Virus record (IMG/VR): IMGVR_UViG_3300043137_000338
Strand: one strand, 5' to 3'
From: a virus
Length of the DNA: 64,000 bases
Shown here: in pieces, positions 23,687 through 62,181 of the stretch
Layout: every line of letters begins with the position of its first letter
How positions within the stretch are numbered: position 1 is the first letter of the stretch
Position numbers and translations under genes: made by a program
The notes under the pieces: model-generated
Database searches by the model: none
The model's input: the letters and a program-made list of their open reading frames with translations, nothing else
What the model was told of the DNA's origin: nothing

Positions 23687-24261
23687 AAAAGCTATCTGAT
23701 TACGTTATGATTCTTGACGACGTATTGAGCGATGAATTATGCAATGAGCTTATTGAAAAATTTGATGCTTCACTAAATGTTGAATCTACAGAAGCTACTT
23801 GGCATGGTTCTTATCAGAAAAGATTCGACGAGTTAAACTTAACTAAAGAAGAAGAATTTCAAGAAAACTGTATAGAGCTCTACACTTTAAGTAAAAATCT
23901 AGTTGAGTTCTATAAAGAAAAATGTGAGATCGAATTCTTCCCAACTAAAATTGGATATGAAGAACTTAGACTTAAGAAGTATAGTGTAAACGATACGGAT
24001 AAGTTTGACTGGCATAGTGACGTTGGAGATTATTCTTCTGCGCGCAGGTTCCTTTCGATGTTCTTTTATCTGAATGATGTTGAAGACGGCGGACAAACGG
24101 TTTTCAATGACTCAAGTTTTTATCCAGAAAAAGATTTGAGTATTAACCCAAGGCGAGGTAGAATAGTAGTATTCCCTCCAATGTGGATGTACCCACACAA
24201 GGCACTTCCACCTATCAGCAACTCAAAATACATACTATCAACGTATTGTCATTACACATAA
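23644..24261 (+). CDS. 2OG-Fe(II) oxygenase (prolyl-4-hydroxylase-like)
   Basis: HxD WHSD..H (PHKAL), jelly-roll pattern; true start may be the ATG at 23707. Confidence 0.6.
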   Translation: MENRTTIFIGGLLLKKLSDYVMILDDVLSDELCNELIEKFDASLNVESTEATWHGSYQKRFDELNLTKEEEFQENCIELYTLSKNLVEFYKEKCEIEFFPTKIGYEELRLKKYSVNDTDKFDWHSDVGDYSSARRFLSMFFYLNDVEDGGQTVFNDSSFYPEKDLSINPRRGRIVVFPPMWMYPHKALPPISNSKYILSTYCHYT

Positions 24262-24269
24262 GGAAACCT

Positions 24270-24518
24270 ATGAGAGTATTAAAATTTAAAGCAGAATGGT
24301 GCGCACCGTGCAAATCGATGACGCAAATTATTAAAAATGCCGGCGATAAAATCACAGTGCCCATTGAAGAAATTGATATTGACCATGACACTGCTGCAGC
24401 ACTGCACTATGGCATTCGTTCCGTGCCCACGATGATCATTGTCAATGAAAACAATGCGGAAGTTAAACGCAAGGTTGGCTCTATGTCAGAAGCCCAGTTG
24501 TTAGAATTTCTTGCATGA
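24270..24518 (+). CDS. thioredoxin
   Basis: WCAPC active site; ATG 24270 preceded by AAGGAAAC. Confidence 0.75.
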   Translation: MRVLKFKAEWCAPCKSMTQIIKNAGDKITVPIEEIDIDHDTAAALHYGIRSVPTMIIVNENNAEVKRKVGSMSEAQLLEFLA

Positions 24519-25066
24519 AAAACATCAGAGTTATTAAGACAGGAATCAATGTCTCTAAGATACTCAAACAGCTAGAACAGTATCCAGAAGATTGGGGTTC
24601 TCAAAAGAAACTCGAAAAAGTTGAGTCCCTTCTAGATCGTGGATACGATGATATTAATGCGGACGTGCTGCAGCTGGTTATTGGTGCAGTACGCGCCGCT
24701 AAAGATTTCGTTGGAGATAGTGAGCTTTCTGTAGCCACACCAGCATATCATCGACACACAGAAATCATTTCTTGGTTAAAGCGAAATAGACTTAACACTT
24801 TCAAACGGTGTGGTTTTTTGTCTCTACCTGTAGGTGGTCATGTTGGTTTACATATCGATGACGGTAGCTACTACCAAACAAAAGATAGATATCATCTATC
24901 AATTCAAGGAACCTATCGTTACCATGTAGGTGACGAATTTGTTGATGTTGAACCTGGTACTCTACTTTGGTTCAACAATAAATTATTACATGGAACAGAA
25001 AACACCGGTGACTGTGTTCGAATAACTTTTGTATTCGATGTTCCTCATTCACGATGGAACCCATAA
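24515..25066 (+). CDS. cupin / Asp-beta-hydroxylase-like protein
   Basis: GGHVGLHID..H..LLHGTEN beta-barrel His cluster. Confidence 0.4.
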   Translation: MKNIRVIKTGINVSKILKQLEQYPEDWGSQKKLEKVESLLDRGYDDINADVLQLVIGAVRAAKDFVGDSELSVATPAYHRHTEIISWLKRNRLNTFKRCGFLSLPVGGHVGLHIDDGSYYQTKDRYHLSIQGTYRYHVGDEFVDVEPGTLLWFNNKLLHGTENTGDCVRITFVFDVPHSRWNP

Positions 25067-25084: not shown

Positions 25085-25993
25085 ATGAGCATACTAGATA
25101 AAATTAAGAAAAATACTACAATTAAAGAAACTGCGATTCTTGCACAATCAAAGTTCTTTCAGAAGAAGGATATGATTCCCACTTCTATTCCCGTAATCAA
25201 CGTCGCACTTTCAGGTCGACTTGACGGTGGATTCGTTCCTGGACTCACGATGTGGGCAGGTCCATCGAAACACTTTAAGACCGCATTCTCTTTGCTGATG
25301 GCAAAGTCATACATGGACAAGTATCCAGAATCAGCTTTGCTGTTCTATGATTCTGAGTTCGGCACTCCACAGTCTTACTTCGATTCGTTTGGTATTGATA
25401 CTTCGCGTGTTGTGCATACTCCAATCATGGACGTTGAACAGTTGAAGTTTGATATCATGCAGCAACTTTCTGTCATCGAGCGTAGTGATAAAATCATGAT
25501 CATCATTGACTCCATTGGTAATCTTGCTTCTAAGAAAGAAGTCGAGGATGCCTTGGACGGTAAGTCGGTTGCCGATATGAGCCGTGCCAAGCAAATGAAG
25601 TCGTTGTTCCGTATGGTAACTCCACACTTGACCATGAAGGATATTCCTATGGTTGTTGTGAACCATACGTATAAAGAAATCGGATTGTATCCAAAGGACA
25701 TCGTTGGTGGTGGTTGTTTGGTTGCAGGCACGAAAATAGAACTATCAGATGGAACATATAAATCTATTGAGGATTTCGTAGTTGGTGATTTAGTTAAAAC
25801 CCTTGATGGTAGCAAAGAAGTAACATATACCTGGAATCCAGAAACACTAGAAGATGGCGAGCCTGAGTGTTTTGAGGTGGAATTTGAAGATGGATATAAG
25901 GTTATTTGTTCAGATAAACACAAATTTTTAATTAATAATGAATGGGTAGAGGCTAAAAATTTGGCTGTTGGTATGGAATCAGCTGAATACTAA
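25085..25993 (+). CDS. uvsX: UvsX recombinase N-terminal extein (aa 1-210) fused to split-intein N-fragment (aa 211-302)
   Basis: FFQKKDMIPTSIPVINVALSGRLDGGFVPGLTMWAGPSKHFKT.. parallels T4 UvsX up to HTY..GGG, then CLVAGTKIELSDG (intein block A) from codon 25715; the ORF stops at 25993 inside the intein. Confidence 0.85.
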   Translation: MSILDKIKKNTTIKETAILAQSKFFQKKDMIPTSIPVINVALSGRLDGGFVPGLTMWAGPSKHFKTAFSLLMAKSYMDKYPESALLFYDSEFGTPQSYFDSFGIDTSRVVHTPIMDVEQLKFDIMQQLSVIERSDKIMIIIDSIGNLASKKEVEDALDGKSVADMSRAKQMKSLFRMVTPHLTMKDIPMVVVNHTYKEIGLYPKDIVGGGCLVAGTKIELSDGTYKSIEDFVVGDLVKTLDGSKEVTYTWNPETLEDGEPECFEVEFEDGYKVICSDKHKFLINNEWVEAKNLAVGMESAEY

Positions 25994-26004
25994 GATTCAA
26001 AATT

Positions 26005-26029
26005 TTATAAATAGTTGTAGGAGGAAACT
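26005..26029 (+). promoter_or_regulatory. T4-type late promoter TATAAATA + AGGAGGAAAC RBS cassette (endonuclease-gene cassette)
   Basis: TATAAATAGTTGTAGGAGGAAACTATG; near-identical cassettes at 58625, 60224 and 61731. Confidence 0.7.
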
Positions 26030-26734
26030 ATGAACTATTATAAAATTTACGAGAACTTAGTTTTAGATGCTAAAACTAATCCAAAACTAGATGACTATAA
26101 GGAATCTCATCATATAATACCTTGTTGTATGGGTGGTGATGACTCTAAAGAGAATCTAGTTCTACTAACTGCAAGACAGCACTATTTGGCGCATTGGTTG
26201 TTGTATAAAATGTATAAAACTAGTAGTCTGGTTCATGCATGGCATTCGATGAGTAGAATTGGGGTTGGTCAAAGCGCCAGATCTATAAATTCTCATTTAT
26301 TTGAATACTGTAAAAAAGAACGTTCAAAAATTCTATCGATACAGTATTCAGGTGAAGGTAACAATTTCTATGGTAAACACCATTCTGAAGAAACTAAACA
26401 GAAATTATCTAATATACATTCTGGAAAGAATTATAGAACTGAAAAACAGATATCTGATTGGGTTGAGATGGTCGCCAAAAAACCGAAATCTAATGAACAT
26501 AGAGAGAAGATCGGAAAGAAGGGTCTTAGAATGTTACAAAATGTGCATACTAAAGAAATAATTAGAGTATCAATTTCTGATGGTAGATTTAATTGTTCCG
26601 ATTGGGTTAACCCAAGAAAATTGAAACCCGAACAGAAATATAAATGTTCTCATTGTGATACTGTGACGACTGCCTCTAATATAAAAAGATGGCATAATGA
26701 TAAATGTAAAAGGAAACCGCAAAATGAAAATTAA
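26030..26734 (+). CDS. free-standing HNH homing endonuclease inside the uvsX intein
   Basis: HNH motif ESHHIIPCCMGGDDSKENLVLLTARQHYLAH, NUMOD-like NFYGKHHSEETKQKLS; own promoter and RBS. Confidence 0.8.
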   Translation: MNYYKIYENLVLDAKTNPKLDDYKESHHIIPCCMGGDDSKENLVLLTARQHYLAHWLLYKMYKTSSLVHAWHSMSRIGVGQSARSINSHLFEYCKKERSKILSIQYSGEGNNFYGKHHSEETKQKLSNIHSGKNYRTEKQISDWVEMVAKKPKSNEHREKIGKKGLRMLQNVHTKEIIRVSISDGRFNCSDWVNPRKLKPEQKYKCSHCDTVTTASNIKRWHNDKCKRKPQNEN

Positions 26735-27260
26735 ATCGATAACACCTGTTGGTAAAAAGAAGGTATATGACATTTCAGTAAAGGATGTTGAACATTATGT
26801 GTTAGAAAATGGAGTAGTTACTCATAACACTGGTTCTTACTACTCTGCTGACAATATCTTCATTCTTGGTCGTCAACAAGAAAAAGACGGAACTGAAATT
26901 GTTGGTTACAACTTTATCATCAACGTAGAAAAGAGTCGTTATGTTCGTGAGAAATCTAAAATACCTGTTAGCGTATCTTTTGACGGCGGCATTAGCCGTT
27001 GGTCTGGCTTACTTGACATTGCTCTAGAATCTGGACATGTCGTTAAACCAAGCAATGGATGGTACAGCAAAGTAGATCAAGATGGCGTTGTTGAAGATAA
27101 AAAGTATCGTCTGAAGGATACCGATAGCAAAGACTTCTGGCTTCCAATTATTCAGCAAAAGACTTTCTCTGAGTTTGTTAAAAATAAGTATCAAGTTTCG
27201 ACTTCAGAAATTATGAAGGGTGAAGACATTGATGCTGAACTTGCGTTGATTGGAGACTAA
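26724..27260 (+). CDS. uvsX: split-intein C-fragment (35 aa) fused to UvsX C-terminal extein
   Basis: KVYDISVKDVEHYVLENGVVTHN (intein blocks F/G) then TGSYYSADNIFILGRQQEKDGTEIVGYNFIINVEKSRYVREKSK.. which continues the T4 UvsX sequence TGPMYSADTVFIIGKRQIKDG..; ATG 26724 with AAAGGAAAC. Confidence 0.85.
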   Translation: MKIKSITPVGKKKVYDISVKDVEHYVLENGVVTHNTGSYYSADNIFILGRQQEKDGTEIVGYNFIINVEKSRYVREKSKIPVSVSFDGGISRWSGLLDIALESGHVVKPSNGWYSKVDQDGVVEDKKYRLKDTDSKDFWLPIIQQKTFSEFVKNKYQVSTSEIMKGEDIDAELALIGD

Positions 27261-27262
27261 TT

Positions 27263-27631
27263 ATGTATGAAGTTCCAGATGATTGGGAACTTCCGCCGCA
27301 TCAAGTTGTTAAACACAAAGATGCGGTTGGAGTTGATGCGATAAAGTTGCTCGCCGAGCCATATTCAGGTATAATAGTGTCTTACGGTAAGGTGTCTTTT
27401 GATACGATCCGAGGCGACGCTGACGAAGAGCATGTGACGATGAAGTTTGACTACACGATGCATGAATCTGCTGGGAAAGACTTCACAGCAAAACAGTTAA
27501 AAGACTTCGAAGTGTACTTGGGTGAATTTCTAAGAGATCTTATCATTTACGGTATCAAAGAAAATAATATAGCATATACAGGCGGTGTTGATGACTCTAG
27601 AGAAAACGATTCTTTCAAATCTCATCAATAA
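27263..27631 (+). CDS. hypothetical protein (gene 40 position between uvsX and 41)
   Basis: 122 aa; T4 gp40 is 120 aa at the same position; no sequence motif checked. Confidence 0.35.
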   Translation: MYEVPDDWELPPHQVVKHKDAVGVDAIKLLAEPYSGIIVSYGKVSFDTIRGDADEEHVTMKFDYTMHESAGKDFTAKQLKDFEVYLGEFLRDLIIYGIKENNIAYTGGVDDSRENDSFKSHQ

Positions 27632-28988
27632 TGAGGAGTATTGCAGAAAGGTAGTTCCACATCTTAAGAAAGAATACTTTGCGGATCGCAAAGATGCTAT
27701 GATCGCAAGTCTTGTTGTTTCCTTCTTCACGAAGTACAATAAGACAGCATCTACAGAAATTCTGGCTATTGAGATCGCCAACCTCAAGGGGTTGACTGAC
27801 AAAGAAGTCCCAGAATATACTGAATATCTTCAAAGTCTAAACACTCAAGAAAAGAACCAAGAATGGCTGCTTGAGCAAACAGAGCAATTCTGTAAAGACC
27901 GAGCAGTTTACAACGCCATTCTTGCTTCCATTAAAATCATTGAAGGAAAAGACCAAGTCCACAGTAAGGATGCGATCCCTTCATTGTTGTCTGAAGCACT
28001 TGGCACTTGCTTTGACAATCACATTGGTCATGATTACATTGAGAATGCTGAGGAACGATTTGACTTCTATAACAGAATAGAAGAAAAGATTCCGTTCGAT
28101 TTGGAGATGTTTAACCTTATCACTAAAGGTGGTCTGTCTCGTAAAACTCTAAACATTGCGCTTGCCGGCACTGGTGTTGGTAAGTCTTTGTTCATGTGTC
28201 ACGTGGCAGCTGGTGCACTAACCAAGGGTAGAAATGTCTTATACATAACTATGGAAATGGCTGAGGAGCGCATCGCAGAACGTATTGACGCGAATCTCTT
28301 GAACCTGACCATGGATGAATTGAAGGTTGTTGATAGAGAAGTCTTCAATACGCGTATTGGTAAAATCGCTAAAAAGACTCAAGGTAAGCTAATCGTCAAA
28401 GAGTATCCTACTGCATCAGCGCACGCTGGACATTTCCGTGCCTTGTTAGAAGAGCTAAAGCTAAAGCGAGAATTCATCCCTGACATTATCATGATCGACT
28501 ATTTAAACATCTGCGCTTCTCAACGTATGAAGCAGGGAGCGAATGTAAATTCTTATACATATGTAAAGGCAATCGCTGAAGAGCTTCGTGGTCTGGCAGT
28601 AGAGTACAACGTTCCGATTATTTCGGCAACTCAAACTACCAGAGGTGGTTTCACGAATAGCGATCCAGGATTGGAAGATACTTCAGAATCATTCGGCTTG
28701 CCTGCCACTGCTGACTTTATGTTTGCCTTGGTATCAAACGAAGAACTTGAGCAGTTGAATCAGATCATCGTTAAGCAATTGAAGAACCGTTACAATGATC
28801 TGAACTACTATAAGAGATTTGTTCTTGGTATTGATCGCTCGAAGATGAAACTCTATGATGTTGAGATTTCTGCTCAAGAAGGTTTGTCCGACGCAGGTAA
28901 ACGAAGCCATGATGACGGTCCGATGTTTGATAAGAGTGAATTCGGTAAACGGTTGAAGACAGATGGCTACGAAGGTTTTAAGTTCTAA
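27591..28988 (+). CDS. 41: replicative DNA helicase gp41 (DnaB-like)
   Basis: Walker A LAGTGVGKS, YITMEMAEERIAERIDANLL and the VKAIAEELRGLAVEYNVPIISATQ arginine-finger region parallel T4 gp41; intact, no intein. Confidence 0.88.
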   Translation: MTLEKTILSNLINNEEYCRKVVPHLKKEYFADRKDAMIASLVVSFFTKYNKTASTEILAIEIANLKGLTDKEVPEYTEYLQSLNTQEKNQEWLLEQTEQFCKDRAVYNAILASIKIIEGKDQVHSKDAIPSLLSEALGTCFDNHIGHDYIENAEERFDFYNRIEEKIPFDLEMFNLITKGGLSRKTLNIALAGTGVGKSLFMCHVAAGALTKGRNVLYITMEMAEERIAERIDANLLNLTMDELKVVDREVFNTRIGKIAKKTQGKLIVKEYPTASAHAGHFRALLEELKLKREFIPDIIMIDYLNICASQRMKQGANVNSYTYVKAIAEELRGLAVEYNVPIISATQTTRGGFTNSDPGLEDTSESFGLPATADFMFALVSNEELEQLNQIIVKQLKNRYNDLNYYKRFVLGIDRSKMKLYDVEISAQEGLSDAGKRSHDDGPMFDKSEFGKRLKTDGYEGFKF

Positions 28989-28998
28989 GGAGAATTAT

Positions 28999-30300
28999 AT
29001 GGTAAAGGTTATTGTCGCTGATAGAAAACATGATTGCACTCATTTGTTGGGTCAATTTCTAGACGAGTCTCACTACGATGTTCTGTTGGAAGAAGATTGT
29101 GATGTGTACGCTCCGCCAGAATATGGTGATTCGATTGAGAATAAGGACGAGCGTAGAATCATCATGAAGTTTCGCAAGAACTTCTTCACCAAAGAACAGC
29201 AGGATGCTGCCTATGCAGGTCTACGTGAAGCTGCCATCGAAACTCAGAACAGAGGTTTGGCTGCAGGTCCGCGTGCTGATAAGTTAGGCAATCGCGATTG
29301 GGTCACTGAGTATGAGTATGACATGGTTGACTATTTTCTCAAGCCAACTGGTAACCTGTTCGGCGAAGATCCAGTAGAAGAAATTCGTAAGAAGCATGCT
29401 TCTAAGAAAGGTGTCATCTCGAATCGTTCCAATGTATGGTCCATTGACCGTGTTCAGAAAGATAAGTTCAACTTTGAAGCATGGGTAGATGCCACTAAAA
29501 TTCTTTCCGAGGATGAGCAGATTGCTTCCGCCAAGTACGTGGCTGAGAAACTGATCTGCGCCACCACCTATGCTAACTCTGTTAACTCTGGTATTGCTGG
29601 TTGGTTCGATCGCTATCCACGCATCCCTTATGGTCGCGCCACTTCTTATACTCAGAAGAATCCTGAGAAGTTTGCCATGGCTTTTCCTTTCCTACAAACC
29701 CTTGCTGCTGGATTTAAAGATTTGCTCCCATGGCGTTATGGGAATCAAATGGAAGCTGCTTCGAAGATTGATAAGCAATTCCTGGTTCCTGGAACACCAT
29801 TCACCACTGTAACTGTTAACAAAACTTTCCGCACAGCTGCTCACTACGATGCCGGTGACTTGACTAGCGGGTTGTCTAACTTGTTGACTCTATCCAACGA
29901 TGGTCGTTACAGCGGTGCTTACCTTGTTGCACCTGAGTATCGTGTAGCTGTTAACGTTCGTCCCGGTGATTTGCTTCTGATCAACAACCATGAAGTTATG
30001 CACGGAAATACTCCTATCGTCTGTCAAGAAGGTTCTGAGCGTATTTCGCTTGTGGTTTACTTCCGTGAGAAGATGCTTGAGCTCGGTACTAAGGAATATG
30101 AAGACTGTCGATTTGACTTTGTTGAATCTCGTCGTCTAAATAAAGAACATCCAGAGTGGCGTCCACTCTGGAATGGTGTTGGTTCTGGTATGTGGGAAAG
30201 CCAAGACTGGTATGACTACCTAGAATCGAAGATGGGAACTACTGTTTTGCAGAAGTATCATCCAGACTCTGTTAAATCTTCGCTTGAAGACTTCTTTTAA
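28999..30300 (+). CDS. 2OG-Fe(II) dioxygenase-like protein (possible nucleic-acid base oxygenase)
   Basis: HxD AAHYDAGD and distal His NNHEVMHGNTPI; ATG 28999 with AAGGAG. Confidence 0.45.
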   Translation: MVKVIVADRKHDCTHLLGQFLDESHYDVLLEEDCDVYAPPEYGDSIENKDERRIIMKFRKNFFTKEQQDAAYAGLREAAIETQNRGLAAGPRADKLGNRDWVTEYEYDMVDYFLKPTGNLFGEDPVEEIRKKHASKKGVISNRSNVWSIDRVQKDKFNFEAWVDATKILSEDEQIASAKYVAEKLICATTYANSVNSGIAGWFDRYPRIPYGRATSYTQKNPEKFAMAFPFLQTLAAGFKDLLPWRYGNQMEAASKIDKQFLVPGTPFTTVTVNKTFRTAAHYDAGDLTSGLSNLLTLSNDGRYSGAYLVAPEYRVAVNVRPGDLLLINNHEVMHGNTPIVCQEGSERISLVVYFREKMLELGTKEYEDCRFDFVESRRLNKEHPEWRPLWNGVGSGMWESQDWYDYLESKMGTTVLQKYHPDSVKSSLEDFF

Positions 30301-30314
30301 ACTGAAAGATAATT

Positions 30315-31661
30315 ATGAAAATTTTAATGGTAATGCATACGTTCAATAACTTCGGTGGTATCATCAATCACTGTGAACATTTGATGGCTGGTTTAAAAGA
30401 GCTTGGTCACGAAGTTAACTTTGCATATTTGAAGGGTAATAAAACTGTTCGCCCAGTTCAGATTCCTGAAACGCTGGGTGAAGGATGGGAGATTGGTGTT
30501 GGCTCAGGTTATCCTGTCCACCAGGGTGATGGTTGGATGGCACCTTACTACTCTTACAAAGTTAAAGAGTCTATCAATAAATTCGTTGAGGATGCTAACA
30601 AACATGACATCGTAATCTGGCAATCTATCTTTGGATTTAAGAACAAAGACACTGAGAAAGATGTCAACTGGCTGCCGATGATCGAGAAGGTTAAAGCGAA
30701 ACAAGTTGCCATTATTCATGACGGTAATCTGAAGAAGTTGTATACTTGGATTCAATTGTTCGAACAACATTTTGCAGGTCTGGCATGTGTGCATCCTGCA
30801 GCGTATGATTCAGCTGACTTCATGAACGTTCCGCGTGCAATGATTCTGAACCCACAAGACATCGCTGGTATTCCTGAGACTCCAAGATATGCTGGTCGTG
30901 AGAACAAGATCCTTTCTATTCAAACATTCAAGCGTTGGAAGCGTGTTGATGACTTAGTTCGTGCAGTTCCACACATGCCAATGGTTAAAACTCTGGTAGG
31001 TGGTTATGGTATGGAAGCTGCATACATGATGTCCAAGGAAAAGTGTAAGGAAGAATACTACTGTACGAAGGAGTATGATCCAGATGCAACTGACAAAATG
31101 TTGGGTAAGCGTATCTGGGAAAATGCTGAAAACTCTGGCACCTTCGACTACCTTGGCTTTATCTCTGGCGGTAAGCGTGATGAGATCCTAACTACATCTA
31201 AATTTCTTGTAGATCCAAGCTGGTCAAATACCTATGGCGAGCATTTCAACCGTGTGGTGATTGATGCCATGCGTATTGGTACTGTTCCCATTGCAATTAA
31301 CTACGGTGTTTCCAACAACGAAGAAGGTAATGGAGTTGTTCTAAAGGCAGGTATCAATTATTGTATGTTGAAGCGTTCTTATACACCAAGACAATACGCT
31401 GAAAAAATCACAGAGTACTGCGATATGAGCCCAGAAGCATACAAACAGATTCAGTTGAACAACTATGAACTGATTAAACAGTTTGATCGTAAGGTGATCG
31501 CTCAGCACTATGTCGATCTCGCAATGGGTAAGCAAACTGGTTATCTAAATGAATTGAAGACCAAATCTAATCACGACCCTAAGCTGCCAAAGCTGGCTCG
31601 TAAAATGTTTGATGAACACTTTGAAGATAACACTGTAGATCTAGAATCTTTCTTTGGTTGA
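30315..31661 (+). CDS. GT-B fold glycosyltransferase (GT4-like)
   Basis: N-terminal MKILMVMHTFNNFGG..HEV motif and C-terminal E..E nucleotide-sugar motif NTYGEHFNRVVIDAMRIGTVPIA. Confidence 0.65.
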   Translation: MKILMVMHTFNNFGGIINHCEHLMAGLKELGHEVNFAYLKGNKTVRPVQIPETLGEGWEIGVGSGYPVHQGDGWMAPYYSYKVKESINKFVEDANKHDIVIWQSIFGFKNKDTEKDVNWLPMIEKVKAKQVAIIHDGNLKKLYTWIQLFEQHFAGLACVHPAAYDSADFMNVPRAMILNPQDIAGIPETPRYAGRENKILSIQTFKRWKRVDDLVRAVPHMPMVKTLVGGYGMEAAYMMSKEKCKEEYYCTKEYDPDATDKMLGKRIWENAENSGTFDYLGFISGGKRDEILTTSKFLVDPSWSNTYGEHFNRVVIDAMRIGTVPIAINYGVSNNEEGNGVVLKAGINYCMLKRSYTPRQYAEKITEYCDMSPEAYKQIQLNNYELIKQFDRKVIAQHYVDLAMGKQTGYLNELKTKSNHDPKLPKLARKMFDEHFEDNTVDLESFFG

Positions 31662-58624: not shown

Positions 58625-58651
58625 TATAAATAGATATAGGAGGAAACAACT
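58625..58651 (+). promoter_or_regulatory. late promoter TATAAATA + AGGAGGAAAC cassette
   Basis: TTTTTATAAATAGATATAGGAGGAAACAACTATG. Confidence 0.7.
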
Positions 58652-59254
58652 ATGTTTATTTGTAAATACTGTAGTAAAGATTGCAACAAAAGGTCACATA
58701 AAAATCATGAATTAAGGTGTCCTAAAAATGCAAACAGGGAATATAAAAATGGAATGTTAGGTAAGAAGGGTAGTAATCAATACACAAAATCAAAATCATT
58801 GTGTATTGAGCCGCCAGTATATGACAGATCTAACTGGAAAAGAGGTGGGGCAGCAGCTTGGTCTACCGAAGAAAGATCAGAAAATGCTAAAAAGCAAGGG
58901 TTCGGTGGTTATAGAGAAAACGCTGGTAACTCGAAGAAGTTTCGAGTTATTGACTCGTTTGGAAAAGAAACTACACTTCAAAGTTCTTATGAATTTAGGT
59001 GTAGTGAGATTTTAAATGAACTTGGTATAAAATGGATTAGACCTAAAGCGTTGAAATATGATAATAGGAATTACTTTGCAGATTTTTATCTTCCAGATTT
59101 AGATATCTGGCTTGACCCAAAGAATAGCTATAAAGCAAAACATGACGAAGAAAAGATAAGAAAGGTCATTGAGCAAAACTCTGTTAGATTGTTTGTTCTT
59201 CTGGAACACCAGCTATCTAAAGAATATATTGGGAGATTAGCTGAGACGGATTAG
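58652..59254 (+). CDS. putative homing endonuclease (Cys-rich N-terminus, PD-(D/E)XK/Vsr-like C-terminus)
   Basis: CKYCSKDC..H..C zinc motif; ..FADFYLPDLDIWLDPK.. nuclease-like core; uses the shared endonuclease-gene cassette. Confidence 0.45.
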   Translation: MFICKYCSKDCNKRSHKNHELRCPKNANREYKNGMLGKKGSNQYTKSKSLCIEPPVYDRSNWKRGGAAAWSTEERSENAKKQGFGGYRENAGNSKKFRVIDSFGKETTLQSSYEFRCSEILNELGIKWIRPKALKYDNRNYFADFYLPDLDIWLDPKNSYKAKHDEEKIRKVIEQNSVRLFVLLEHQLSKEYIGRLAETD

Positions 59255-60223: not shown

Positions 60224-60249
60224 TATAAATAGTTACATAGGAGGAAACT
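60224..60249 (+). promoter_or_regulatory. late promoter TATAAATA + AGGAGGAAAC cassette
   Basis: CTTTTATAAATAGTTACATAGGAGGAAACTATG. Confidence 0.7.
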
Positions 60250-60876
60250 ATGTACTATACTGTTTATAAAATAACGAATCGAATCAATGGTAAGATCTAT
60301 ATTGGATCACATAAAACCAAAGATTTGAATGACAATTATATGGGTTCTGGAAAGTATCTTAAATACTCTCAAGAGAAGCATGGTATAGAAAATTTTACCA
60401 AAGAAATTCTTTTTGTTTTTGATACTCCAGAACTTATGTACGCAAAAGAAGCTGAGATTGTTAATGATGAATTCCTTGCTGAAGAAAATACATACAATCT
60501 AAAGCTAGGTGGATATGGTGGGTTTGATTATCTAAATGCTTGGAAGGAAAATCCGACACATTCTGCTGACCATTACTTAAAGATGTCTTTGCGATTGAAA
60601 GAAAAATATCCAAATAGTCCTATGTACGGACGTAAACATTCTGAAGATTCTAAAAGTAAAAACAGTCAATCTAATCTTGGTAATCAAAGGTTTCTTGGGC
60701 GTAAACATTCTGACGAAACTAAACAAAAAATGCGCTATAGCGCATTGGAAAAACATAGTAAAGATAAAAATTCGCAGTTCGGAACTATGTGGATAACCGA
60801 TGGTTTGGAAAACAAAAAGATCAATAAACTACACGAAATTCCTGATGGTTGGCGTCGTGGTAGAGTGATAAATTAA
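60250..60876 (+). CDS. GIY-YIG homing endonuclease (SegB-like, in tRNA cluster)
   Basis: YKITNRINGKIYIGSHK GIY-YIG motif, repeated NUMOD3-like GRKHSEDSK / GRKHSDETK. Confidence 0.8.
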   Translation: MYYTVYKITNRINGKIYIGSHKTKDLNDNYMGSGKYLKYSQEKHGIENFTKEILFVFDTPELMYAKEAEIVNDEFLAEENTYNLKLGGYGGFDYLNAWKENPTHSADHYLKMSLRLKEKYPNSPMYGRKHSEDSKSKNSQSNLGNQRFLGRKHSDETKQKMRYSALEKHSKDKNSQFGTMWITDGLENKKINKLHEIPDGWRRGRVIN

Positions 60877-61730: not shown

Positions 61731-61767
61731 TATAAATAGATGTATACTAATTATAAGGAGAAACAGT
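61731..61767 (+). promoter_or_regulatory. late promoter TATAAATA + AAGGAGAAAC cassette
   Basis: TTTTTATAAATAGATGTATACTAATTATAAGGAGAAACAGTATG. Confidence 0.65.
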
Positions 61768-62181
61768 ATGAATACTAACGAAAAGGGTGTCCGTGGTTTA
61801 ATTAAAGTAATTGACGATCTACAGAGCAATGGTTATTATGTATTTAATGCATTCGATGATCATTCTCCTGTGGATGTTATAGCGATGGATAAAACTGGAA
61901 AAACATTCAGGATTCAGATAAAGTATCGTCAAGCCACTGTAAAAAAGAACAAAGGCAACACATACAATCTTGGAGCGTTTTCCATAGTTAATTCTAAAAA
62001 AATTGAAATAGATCGTAGTTTAATCGATGGATGGGCAGTATATATGGCAGACGATAATAAAGTTGTGTATATTCCTGTTAAATCTATGGAAGGTAAAAAA
62101 GAAACTACGTTATATGGTAGTGAAGTTTATGGAGAGTTGACAGAGTGGCAATGTGCTGGTTTGCTAAACCAAGACCACTGA
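61768..62181 (+). CDS. putative PD-(D/E)XK-like nuclease (mobile endonuclease candidate); its last 51 nt are the 5' part of tRNA-Ser
   Basis: ..DVIAMDK..FRIQIK.. D..(D/E)xK-like core; the C-terminal residues ..YGELTEWQCAGLLNQDH are encoded by the tRNA-Ser(GCU) acceptor, D and anticodon arms. Confidence 0.45.
   Translation: MNTNEKGVRGLIKVIDDLQSNGYYVFNAFDDHSPVDVIAMDKTGKTFRIQIKYRQATVKKNKGNTYNLGAFSIVNSKKIEIDRSLIDGWAVYMADDNKVVYIPVKSMEGKKETTLYGSEVYGELTEWQCAGLLNQDH

Follow-up and report, generated by a model that had tools for sequence, protein, structure and literature searches.

The uvsX recombinase gene of an uncultured T4-like phage is very probably a 'fractured' gene, which carries at the site GGG-T (the dash marks the junction) a mobile cassette made up of a class 1 mini-intein and the gene for a MobE-like HNH endonuclease. 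The phage is known from IMG/VR record IMGVR_UViG_3300043137_000338, of which a stretch of 64,000 nucleotides, here called the window, was analysed; its gp41 is 71% identical in nucleotide sequence to that of Synechococcus myophages. Membership of the locus in the 'fractured gene' class of Dassa et al. 2009 is real and well supported. The endonuclease gene occupies the canonical point of endonuclease insertion in the intein, and the intein and its host gene are therefore divided into two ORFs, whose products are inferred from their sequences to be joined by protein trans-splicing.

Layout of the uvsX locus

The host gene comprises two adjacent ORFs on the same strand, in different reading frames, and a free-standing ORF with its own start is found between the intein halves. 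The features below are numbered by their position in the window.

25085-25993, + strand: ORF of the uvsX N-part plus IntN, 302 aa (210 aa of UvsX and 92 aa of intein)
25085-25714, + strand: uvsX N-extein, 210 aa, ending in DIVGGG; aligned to T4 UvsX (3IO5) as far as the junction; Pfam RecA, 3.2e-7
25715-25993, + strand: IntN, the intein N-half, 92 aa; Cys1 codon TGT at 25715-25717; block B CSDKH; stop codon TAA at 25991-25993
26000-26048, + strand: predicted RNA hairpin, with its 5' arm at 26000-26020, loop GAGGAAA at 26021-26027 and 3' arm at 26028-26048
26006-26013, + strand: T4-late-type promoter motif TATAAATA, 24 nt 5' of the endonuclease ATG
26019-26024, + strand: Shine-Dalgarno sequence AGGAGG of the endonuclease gene, from sequence
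26030-26734, + strand: predicted free-standing homing endonuclease gene, 234 aa; phrog_655, 3.5e-53
26711-26716, + strand: probable RBS AGGAAA of the C-half ORF, from sequence, within the 3' end of the endonuclease ORF
26724-26828, + strand: IntC, the intein C-half, 35 aa, MKIKS...VYDISV..VVTHN
26829-27260, + strand: uvsX C-extein, 143 aa from Thr+1 (ACT, 26829-26831), beginning TGSYYSADNIF; Pfam T4_UVSX_C, 8.6e-18

All coordinates given in the original prediction hold. The uvsX frame runs through the Cys codon to a stop at 25993 and includes exactly 92 intein residues; the middle ORF, its promoter motif and its AGGAGG are present as claimed; and the third ORF, from ATG 26724, encodes 35 intein residues followed by Thr and 142 UvsX residues. 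This C-half ORF overlaps the endonuclease ORF by 11 nt. An ATG at 26697 was rejected as its start in favour of that at 26724, because homologous C-half ORFs always begin M-K/Q/L/R-[IVL]-K and often have a stop codon directly upstream.

The exteins and the insertion site

When joined, the two exteins give a protein of 353 aa and 39.7 kDa, which aligns to T4 UvsX (3IO5) with an E-value of 6e-110 and without a gap at GGG-TG. The C-extein resumes where T4 UvsX continues, as had been predicted, and the peptide across the spliced junction is expected to read ..DIVGGGTGSYYSADNIF... In 72 inteinless relatives the gene is uninterrupted exactly at GGG-T. The closest relatives of the exteins are empty-site alleles; the inteinless allele L021 is 93% and 88% identical in amino acid sequence to the two window exteins, with its junction exactly at GGG-T. 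A divergent co-conversion tract was looked for around the window's own junction and none was found. Over about 38 nt, the flanks there do not differ from the inteinless allele L025. The insertion site is conserved and, in the alignment, falls where the RecA L2 region ends.

The intein and endonuclease have a lower GC fraction (0.30-0.35) than the exteins (0.38-0.42). Values of dN/dS are around 0.1-0.18 in the intein halves, endonuclease and exteins alike, and are rough because dS is saturated in most pairs; they suggest purifying selection on both parts of the extein and on both intein halves.

A class 1 intein divided between two ORFs

The upstream ORF ends in intein blocks A and B, and the downstream ORF opens with blocks F and G. 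The Pfam model Intein_splicing matches both ORFs over complementary stretches (model positions 48-88 and 122-155), while the individual matches to Pfam Hint lie below the gathering cut-off. A search with the joined intein as a single sequence finds the inteins gp41-1 and Npu DnaE with E about 1e-5, and a profile of 22 intein sequences matches the same two at 2e-10 and 4e-10 in a search of the PDB, where gp41-1 ranks among the best matches. The top PDB match of this profile was Tako8, a designed repeat protein, which was dismissed as a repeat-summing artefact. Alignment of both ORFs to UvsX and to intein models, the check proposed with the original prediction, bears out the placing of the N and C blocks on separate ORFs.

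The residues that define class 1 inteins are all present, namely Cys1, the block B sequence S66-D-K-H69, the block F Asp, the C-terminal His-Asn and Thr+1. Among 22 alleles, C1, T6, S66, H69, D108, H126, N127 and T+1 are invariant, and three of these residues (Cys1 and, in block B, Ser and His) do not vary in 110 metagenomic clusters either. The +1 residue is Thr in all inspected loci except one, where it is Ser. The division into 92 and 35 aa falls between blocks B and F, in the same loop as the break in gp41-1 (6QAZ). The position of the break, the sizes of the halves and their opposite net charge (-13 for IntN, +2 for IntC) are those of canonical split inteins. Because the AlphaFold2 model of the joined intein, made from single-sequence input, was uninformative (pLDDT 36), the HINT fold of the joined intein is predicted from sequence.

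The endonuclease gene and its expression signals

The middle ORF is predicted to encode a free-standing MobE-like HNH/NUMOD3 homing endonuclease. Its 234 aa include an N-terminal HNH head (ESHHIIPCCMGGDDSKENLVLLTARQHYLAH) with a visible motif HH(27-28)..N42..H51, NUMOD3 repeats that score above the Pfam cut-off (1e-9), and a C-terminal CxxC..WHxxxC tail. It matches phrog_655 (3.5e-53) and phrog_12434, annotated as 'HNH endonuclease', and is 36% identical over its full length to the product of a coliphage endonuclease gene in the nrdA/nrdB (mobE) position. The HNH similarity is weak in Pfam, where HNH and HNH_4 give E-values of 0.005-0.009 (0.009 for HNH), below their cut-offs, and PDB matches are also weak (E 0.26). 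The HNH assignment made in the original prediction stands on the visible motif, the phrog_655 match and the mobE-position relative, and does not reach the cut-off for Pfam HNH. Relatives at least 59% identical to the endonuclease are located at the uvsX intein split site in 17 of 17 cases. With this association to a single target comes a sporadic distribution, in which closely related exteins belong to empty and to occupied alleles alike.

A feature new to this analysis is that the endonuclease start codon appears to lie within a conserved hairpin overlapping the late-type promoter. The 5' arm covers most of the promoter, the loop holds most of the Shine-Dalgarno sequence, and the 3' arm contains the AUG and codons 2-6. 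The hairpin has a folding z of -3.5, and 0 of 200 shuffles fold equally well. It is kept in nine distinct loci with one compensatory pair (UA in six, CG in three), so that support from covariation comes to one base pair, and the arms could be conserved for other reasons, the 3' arm as coding sequence and the 5' arm for its overlap with the promoter. T4 I-TevI and Aeh1 mobE likewise have a start-codon hairpin that overlaps a late-type promoter.

The motif TATAAATA is not enriched in the window (5 copies found, 3.8 expected). Four of the five copies are followed, 24-37 nt further on, by the start of a + strand ORF (binomial P = 2e-6), and the motif is kept upstream of homologous endonuclease genes. 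By analogy with T4, we assume that it is used as a late promoter in this uncultured phage. The RBS region of the C-half (26711-26716) is unstructured (z +0.4), and the equivalent stretch in the contiguous allele L016 is translated as a linker. There is no terminator-like site between the halves; scans for sigma-70 promoters and terminators performed no better than on shuffles, with none relevant between the halves.

Relatives and life-cycle states

The three-ORF split layout is common to more than 100 metagenomic protein clusters, and at least 119 metagenomic clusters consist of UvsX-N plus IntN proteins of roughly 302 aa. The same uvsX split intein is found in 25 GenBank records from at least 19 cultured T4-like phages of several genera, which contradicts the original claim that such architecture is known mainly from metagenomes. 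These cultured carriers, all of them viable, include Escherichia phage HY03, Yersinia phage TG1, Salmonella phages CF-SP2 and SEA1, Proteus phage Pm5461, Pseudomonas phage PspYZU05, Shewanella phage Thanatos-1, Vibrio phages vB_VmeM-32 and EniLVp02, and others (Straboviridae, GenBank). A megablast search with the locus and 12 kb downstream found no near relative of the window among cultured phages.

The cultured Straboviridae loci share the insertion site, split point and three-gene layout of the window. Their IntN is 58-63% identical to that of the window and has a 4-residue insertion, and their IntC is 60-86% identical. The endonucleases differ in their heads. A second feature new to this analysis is that an HNH head in the environmental clade and an unrelated, Seg-like head (phrog_7504/314) in the cultured Straboviridae are joined, at the same site, to DNA-binding tails that are homologous; between the window and PspYZU05 this C-terminal tail is 39% identical over 124 aa (E 2e-21). 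The Seg-like assignment for HY03, PspYZU05 and EniLVp02, in whose endonucleases Pfam GIY-YIG was not detected, is based on phrog_314/7504, GenBank notes and a weak BLASTP match. Pfam detects GIY-YIG only in Thanatos-1, and the assignment for TG1 comes from its GenBank annotation.

One family spans the whole proposed life cycle, with empty, contiguous, intact, broken and remnant or re-fused states. A contiguous mini-intein is seen in L016, L017 and P0100; fractured uvsX with an intact endonuclease gene in the window, L014, L015, L024 and L094-L108; an endonuclease broken into two ORFs in L018; and endonuclease remnants in L019, L020 and L110. Between L016 and L096 there is not a single mismatch in about 360 nt of the intein, while the genes around it are only 79% identical. 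Judged from the alignment, the identical stretch is a fresh gene-conversion tract between diverged phages.

Comparison with known systems

The fractured genes described by Dassa, London, Stoddard, Schueler-Furman & Pietrokovski in 2009, among them gp41-1 to gp41-9, NrdJ-1 and IMPDH-1, have an endonuclease gene between the halves (PMC2677866). Like the window, they show three ORFs on the same strand, a split at the endonuclease-insertion point, an acidic IntN with a basic IntC, and a phage replication or repair gene as host. In its solved structure (6QAZ) the gp41-1 intein forms a chain of 128 residues, against 92+35 aa in the window, and its block B reads CSEEH where the window has CSDKH. The host gene is different, as UvsX is named by Dassa 2009 only as the intact neighbour of fractured gp41 loci, and so is the endonuclease type, since the window has a predicted MobE-like HNH enzyme, a type that the same authors explicitly predicted for fractured genes (PMC2677866). 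Both uvsX as host gene and HNH as endonuclease type are additions to the class. Unlike the Dassa 2009 set, the window family samples empty, contiguous, intact, broken and remnant states. In the literature we found no description of a UvsX split intein, an absence that is no proof of being unpublished, no paper on the loci of the cultured phages, and no splicing or cleavage experiment on any UvsX intein.

A second comparison is with Aeromonas phage Aeh1, whose nrdA is split by mobE (Friedrich et al. 2007; Gibb & Edgell 2007), here followed through the accounts in PMC2677866 and PMC2988022. According to these accounts, a MobE-like HNH endonuclease gene is again found inside a nucleotide/DNA-metabolism gene of a T4-like phage, the three genes are co-transcribed, and controls on both transcription and translation confine expression of the endonuclease to late times. 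The late-type promoter and predicted AUG-sequestering hairpin of the window fit this control logic. As described there, the Aeh1 NrdA halves have no intein and assemble non-covalently, whereas the window has complete intein halves with catalytic residues.

The PolB1 inteins of Aes123 and CP21 resemble that of the window in that they are naturally split, with the break at the endonuclease-insertion point, and are found in a replication gene of T4-like phages, in their case cultured ones (PMC11923092, PMC12707363). Their host is the gp43 polymerase and they are cysteine-less (Ser1), in contrast to uvsX and Cys1/Thr+1 in the window; they have been tested biochemically, whereas the window intein is known from its sequence.

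Alternative explanations

It is quite improbable, in our judgement, that the UvsX fragments function as a non-covalent complex for which the intein halves are only an association domain. Split inteins do bind tightly, their charge complementarity suits association equally well, and precedents for functional unspliced fragments are cited in Dassa 2009 and PMC3045599; Aeh1 NrdA, in the accounts given above, works without an intein. Association alone would have no need of Cys1, the block B Ser and His, the block F Asp, His-Asn or Thr+1, yet these are invariant among alleles that are 50-90% identical, and a RecA-type filament would probably be disrupted by a 127-aa domain left at its L2/DNA-binding region. 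We see very little likelihood that uvsX is a decaying pseudogene, inactivated by insertion of the endonuclease gene and in the course of being lost. Endonuclease genes are clearly decaying in L018, L019, L020 and L110. Moreover, T4 uvsX mutants are impaired, not dead; uvsX is not strictly essential, and 'essential', the word used for the recombinase in the original prediction, was too strong. Set against decay are the apparent purifying selection on both extein parts and both intein halves, an ORF length that holds at about 302 aa across more than 100 clusters, the lack of a second uvsX in the window, and the persistence of the split in 19 cultured phages of several genera.

Repair at the RNA level can hardly be credited. 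It would place the endonuclease gene in a group I intron, with mRNA splicing yielding a contiguous, intein-containing uvsX, and T4-like phages do have group I introns with endonuclease ORFs. Against it, no Rfam intron is matched over 25500-27100 at E-values up to 10, a ribozyme core would not fit because the endonuclease ORF has only 36 non-coding bases upstream and none downstream, and the halves are in different frames, the second with its own ATG and RBS that are conserved in homologues. The window comes from an uncultured metagenomic phage, where an assembly or sequencing artefact is conceivable, and we give this next to no credence: the 2176-base region is 99.95-100% identical and gapless in four contigs from four different samples and independent assemblies, and the same architecture is present in complete genomes of cultured phages. 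The original prediction had named a continuous ORF as the mark of an artefact; none exists, the gap is kept in all four assemblies, and an artefact is rejected. Extein continuity, intein blocks, split position and charge complementarity instead agree on the fractured-gene and split-intein reading, which is also backed by purifying selection, presence/absence polymorphism and the independent assemblies.

Proposed mechanism and significance

For the fractured gene, we propose that early/middle read-through transcripts of the uvsX operon would give two polypeptides, UvsX(1-210)-IntN of 33.8 kDa and IntC-UvsX(211-353) of 20.2 kDa, the latter from its own RBS. The acidic IntN (-13) and basic IntC (+2) would associate into a HINT fold, in which Cys1, the block B Ser and His, the block F Asp, the terminal His-Asn and Thr+1 would bring about trans-splicing. 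The product would be a UvsX of 39.7 kDa in which the junction reads GGG-TG, as in the native protein. The AUG-pairing hairpin would silence the endonuclease on early/middle transcripts, and the enzyme would be made only from a late transcript beginning within the hairpin 5' arm. In a mixed infection, the endonuclease would cut cassette-less alleles, and repair would copy the cassette in, itself using UvsX. Homing of the T4 type depends on this host recombinase (PMC2988022); the element lies inside it, and the parasite must therefore keep the host gene working in order to spread.

Two further readings are put forward tentatively, and together seem unlikely: that trans-splicing has been co-opted as a gate on the recombinase, and that nuclease heads have been swapped on a shared tail. 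A post-translational gate could operate, for example, if both halves must accumulate, or if Cys1 and the L2-loop insertion site are sensitive to redox state or ssDNA. Sensitivity to redox or ssDNA has been reported for RadA/RecA inteins. Such a gate would explain why the split is kept under purifying selection where the endonuclease is a remnant (L019, L020, L110). If the second reading is true, the two heads on one tail represent nuclease-domain swapping caught in the act, with a fixed target-recognition module.

The occurrence of the whole cycle and a 100%-identical conversion tract in one family makes the 'gene-breaking' model of Dassa testable, and homologous loci in culturable coliphages and in Yersinia, Salmonella and Proteus phages make splicing, timing and homing directly testable. 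The compact Cys1/Thr+1 split intein of 92+35 aa is a relative of gp41-1, which is in wide use, and a candidate tool for protein engineering. There is also a consequence for annotation practice, as the split uvsX loci of cultured phages are currently labelled as two 'RecA-like' genes.

Architecture of the split uvsX locus

The split uvsX of this uncultured T4-like phage, with a putative HNH endonuclease gene between the halves, is a real finding. On re-reading the sequence, the three-ORF layout and coordinates of the original prediction matched exactly, and the roughly 92 intein residues expected from the Cys codon at 25715-25717 proved to be exactly 92.

Features of the split uvsX locus, where IntN and IntC are the intein N- and C-halves and the exteins are the flanking UvsX parts.
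25085-25993, +, UvsX N-part and IntN ORF, 302 aa (UvsX residues 1-210, then 92 intein residues)
25715-25717, +, Cys1 codon TGT, after the N-extein end ..DIVGGG
25991-25993, +, TAA stop of the first ORF
36 bases, +, non-coding gap before the endonuclease ORF, containing TATAAATA and AGGAGG
26006-26013, +, late-type promoter motif TATAAATA
26019-26024, +, AGGAGG (Shine-Dalgarno, SD)
26030-26734, +, endonuclease ORF, 234 aa
ATG 26724 to 27260, +, IntC and UvsX C-part ORF, 35 aa ending VVTHN, then the UvsX remainder
26829-26831, +, Thr+1 codon, first C-extein residue

The third ORF begins 11 nt inside the 3′ end of the endonuclease ORF, in a different frame. An alternative ATG is listed upstream at 26697, but the C-half starts as M-K/Q/L/R-[IVL]-K in 17 of 17 homologous loci, with a stop codon immediately upstream in several, and we therefore place the start at 26724.

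The joined exteins form a protein of 353 aa (39.7 kDa) that matches the T4 UvsX crystal-structure sequence 3IO5 with an E-value of 5.9e-110. As predicted, the C-extein resumes where T4 UvsX continues, and the alignment has no gap at the junction (..vnhtykeiglypkdivgggtgsyysadnifilgrqq.. against ..INHTYETQEMFSKTVMGGGTGPMYSADTVFIIGKRQ..). Pfam assigns RecA to the first ORF and T4_UVSX_C (8.6e-18) to the third, and a search for a second uvsX copy within the window found none.

Alignment to UvsX and intein HMMs had also been proposed. Alongside the gap-free UvsX match, Pfam Intein_splicing falls on both ORFs, each single match scoring under the gathering threshold: the first ORF takes positions 48-88 of the model and the third 122-155, complementary parts of one domain. 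The joined 127-aa intein aligns along both halves with the split inteins Npu DnaE and gp41-1 (E ~1e-5), and a profile built from 22 joined alleles, 50-90% identical to each other, reaches 2.2e-10 to the gp41-1 intein 6QAZ and 3.9e-10 to Npu DnaE. The top match of that profile search, a designed repeat protein, was rejected as an artefact. No variation is seen in the 22 alleles at C1 and T6 of block A, S66 and H69 of block B (CSDKH in the window, CSEEH in gp41-1), D108 of block F or H126-N127 of block G. At +1, all inspected loci have Thr except one with Ser. In 110 of the best 120 metagenomic protein clusters, Cys1 is likewise constant, as are the Ser and His of block B; the other 10 were left unaligned, mostly since SGG replaces GGG before the Cys. 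The intein is broken between blocks B and F, at the canonical split site, and IntN and IntC have net charges of -13 and +2, the same polarity as reported for natural split inteins (PMC2677866). A HINT fold for the joined intein rests on sequence evidence, as single-sequence AlphaFold gave a pLDDT of 36. The complementary Pfam parts, the gp41-1 and Npu DnaE matches and the constant catalytic positions all support reading the extra residues as a split intein. In short, the original prediction is right in all structural respects; trans-splicing, cleavage and timing we infer.

The endonuclease gene

We call the middle gene a putative MobE-like HNH endonuclease. The predicted ORF is there, with a visible HH..N..H motif (ESHHIIPCCMGGDDSKENLVLLTARQHYLAH) and PHROG matches to phrog_655 ‘homing endonuclease’ (3.5e-53) and an ‘HNH endonuclease’ family (4.5e-7); Pfam gives NUMOD3 above cut-off (1e-9), with HNH only sub-threshold (E 0.005-0.009). 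The assignment draws on these matches and on cultured relatives, ~36% identical over the full length and annotated as homing endonucleases of T4-like phages, because the relative scoring best by E-value (1e-27) is flanked by nrdA and nrdB, where T4 carries mobE (table, PMC2988022). The gene is specific to the uvsX intein split site: all 17 IMG/VR relatives at ≥59% identity sit between a UvsX-IntN ORF and an IntC-UvsX ORF.

A second free-standing homing endonuclease gene, of GIY-YIG/SegE type, is found at 60250-60876 (208 aa; phrog_314 1.9e-54, Pfam SegE_GIY-YIG 1e-5, NUMOD3 1.6e-10), with TATAAATA at 60224, 26 nt ahead of its ATG.

Predicted late expression of the endonuclease

Five copies of TATAAATA occur in the window, all on the + strand, a number not above chance. 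Four of them, including that of the second endonuclease ORF, precede an ORF start by 24-37 nt (binomial P = 2e-6). Directly behind TATAAATA we also see two ORFs, one within 58625-59254 (200 aa; weak PHROG matches to a resolvase-like nuclease family, 2e-6) and one within 61731-62181 (137 aa; weak PHROG matches to a family of unknown function), which may be further mobile or late-expressed genes in the replication module.

A hairpin at 26000-26048 has a z-score of -3.5 within an 86-nt segment, and none of 200 shuffles folds equally well. Most of the Shine-Dalgarno falls in the loop, between a 5′ arm that overlaps the promoter motif and a 3′ arm that pairs the AUG and next codons. The TATAAATAGTTCAT..SD..ATGAACTATT arrangement recurs in nine distinct loci, and GTCCAT..ATGGAC in three sequences is a compensatory U-A to C-G change. 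At T4 late promoters, the transcript begins a few bases downstream of the motif. A transcript begun in this way just downstream of TATAAATA would lose the 5′ arm, so that the endonuclease would be translated from late mRNA alone and stay silent on read-through uvsX mRNA. From this conserved arrangement we infer a late-only expression logic, and we liken it to that of I-TevI, which is under the same type of control. The mobE gene of Aeh1 offers a further likeness, being late-restricted in the same manner (PMC2677866). The IntC start region is unstructured and no terminator-like site was found between the halves, which would fit a C-half translated independently from the operon transcript.

Occurrence and constraint

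At least four samples (two JGI metagenomes, two Logan assemblies) contain contigs that code for exactly the same N-ORF protein. The split had been open to the objection of an assembly artefact, yet the whole 2176-bp region is 99.95-100% identical and gap-free in all four contigs. In the protein database, ~302-aa UvsX-N plus IntN proteins that are 72-85% identical to that of the window make up at least 119 distinct clusters at 90% identity. Median dN/dS values (pairwise Nei-Gojobori, ten loci) are 0.11 for the N-extein, 0.13 for IntN, 0.18 for the endonuclease, 0.10 for IntC and 0.15 for the C-extein, and are rough, with dS saturated in many pairs; even so, the intein halves are under constraint equal to that on the recombinase itself.

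The view that this architecture is mainly metagenomic did not hold. With IntN alone as tblastn query, 25 GenBank records from 19 cultured Straboviridae carry IntN in uvsX at 58-63% identity, among them Escherichia phages of the HY03 group, Yersinia phage TG1, Salmonella phages CF-SP2, SEA1 and pSe_SNUABM_01, Proteus phages Pm5461 and PM2, Pseudomonas phage PspYZU05, Klebsiella and Enterobacter phages, Shewanella phage Thanatos-1, and Vibrio phages vB_VmeM-32 and EniLVp02. In each of the nine cultured-phage loci inspected we see the three-part layout: two genes annotated as RecA-like or as uvsX_1 / uvsX_2 flank one labelled endonuclease or ‘hypothetical’. The split-intein reading of uvsX is thus directly testable in cultured phages.

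Their endonucleases differ from the window’s HNH protein in the N-terminal head, which is Seg-like (phrog_7504/314); GIY-YIG is a Pfam match in Thanatos-1 only, and a GenBank annotation in TG1. The C-terminal 124 residues of the window protein (26030-26734) are, however, 39% identical (E 2e-21) to the PspYZU05 tail (locus L007, 2844-3695), a region taking in NUMOD3 and the CxxC..WHxxxC end. Homologous tails under unlike heads would thus give two nuclease types one DNA-binding module at one site, which suggests a nuclease-domain swap.

Remoter IntN relatives (28-46% identity) are seen in other phage genes, for ribonucleotide reductase, helicase and terminase large subunit: those of Campylobacter phages CP20, CPt10, F379, CC_R7 and others (nrdA; CPt10 has a gene annotated as ‘disrupted’ relative to CP220); Salicola phage SCTP-2; Corynebacterium phage phi673 (helicase); and Brevundimonas jumbo phages (terminase).

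ALTERNATIVES

A group I intron joining the halves at the RNA level is excluded within the reach of Rfam, which gives no match, and also for want of non-coding space. Non-covalent assembly of the UvsX halves without splicing is possible in principle, but leaves the constant catalytic residues unexplained. The purifying selection and the viable cultured carriers are both at odds with a decaying pseudogene.

Occupied, empty and decaying states

The split intein and its endonuclease gene form a cassette at the GGG|T site of uvsX. Among the best 80 IMG/VR uvsX loci, 72 are without an intein and continuous exactly at this site, including L021, the closest extein relative of the window (93% / 88% aa). 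At the nucleotide level the window exteins resemble inteinless alleles (81-87%) more than they do the other alleles with an intein (70-82%), and cassette presence therefore does not track extein phylogeny. The intein halves and split are kept in all loci with a decayed endonuclease.

States of the cassette in homologous uvsX loci (L numbers).
Window, L014, L015, L024, L094-L108: intact endonuclease, split intein
L018 2066-2767: endonuclease split into two ORFs, halves and split intact
L020 3214-3471: 85-aa head-plus-tail remnant (internal deletion), halves and split intact
L019 3855-4070, L110 1501-1647: tail-only endonuclease remnants, halves and split intact
L016 3631-4050, L017 2098-2517, protein P0100: contiguous 490-aa UvsX, uninterrupted mini-intein

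The contiguous allele is presumably cis-splicing. Its IntN-IntC linker is GAGGAAATT (Glu-Glu-Ile), and the same nine bases precede the IntC ATG, as a ribosome-binding stretch, in the fractured sibling L096. The stretch in which L016 and L096 show zero mismatches begins 18 nt before IntN, takes in all 306 nt of IntN and linker, and ends 26 nt inside IntC, whereas their N-exteins are only 79% identical, with mismatches reaching that boundary. This identity is the footprint of recent gene conversion moving the intein between diverged phages. The lower GC of intein and endonuclease (0.30-0.35, against 0.38-0.42 in the exteins) points the same way.

Known systems and neighbouring genes

Dassa et al. 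2009 described the same architecture as fractured genes, in gp41, NrdA/J, IMPDH and other hosts, with GIY-YIG and Vsr-like endonucleases only; UvsX appears there just as an intact neighbour, and HNH is predicted as a possible gene-fracturing enzyme (PMC2677866). The window differs in its host gene, uvsX, and its HNH-type endonuclease. In cultured T4-like phages, natural split inteins are known for PolB (Aes123, CP21). No UvsX split intein was described in the literature searched, though a description may exist elsewhere. The class is known and the case not categorically new; it is a new host gene with a new endonuclease type, neither of which we saw described in that literature, and adds a shared putative DNA-binding tail on two nuclease types, a conserved, predicted late-only logic, a complete evolutionary series and a fresh conversion tract.

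Between uvsX-C and the gp41 helicase gene, a 122-aa ORF (27263-27631) without Pfam or PHROG match occupies the place that gp40 (head vertex assembly chaperone) has in cultured T4-likes. The interval 23707-25066, bounded by the DNA polymerase gene and uvsX, holds three small genes of redox type: a 2OG-Fe(II) oxygenase (4e-13), a thioredoxin (1.5e-15) and an Asp/Arg-hydroxylase-like cupin (5e-7). A 2OG oxygenase and UvsX also lie upstream of fractured gp41 loci on cyanophage-like contigs (Dassa 2009, PMC2677866). Finally, at 28963-31661, just downstream of the gp41 helicase gene, a Tet/JBP-type 2OG-Fe(II) dioxygenase (445 aa, Pfam Tet_JBP 3.4e-25, above cut-off) is immediately followed by a group-1 glycosyltransferase (448 aa, 3.6e-9), a pair that looks like a DNA base hypermodification module acting by oxidation, then glycosylation.
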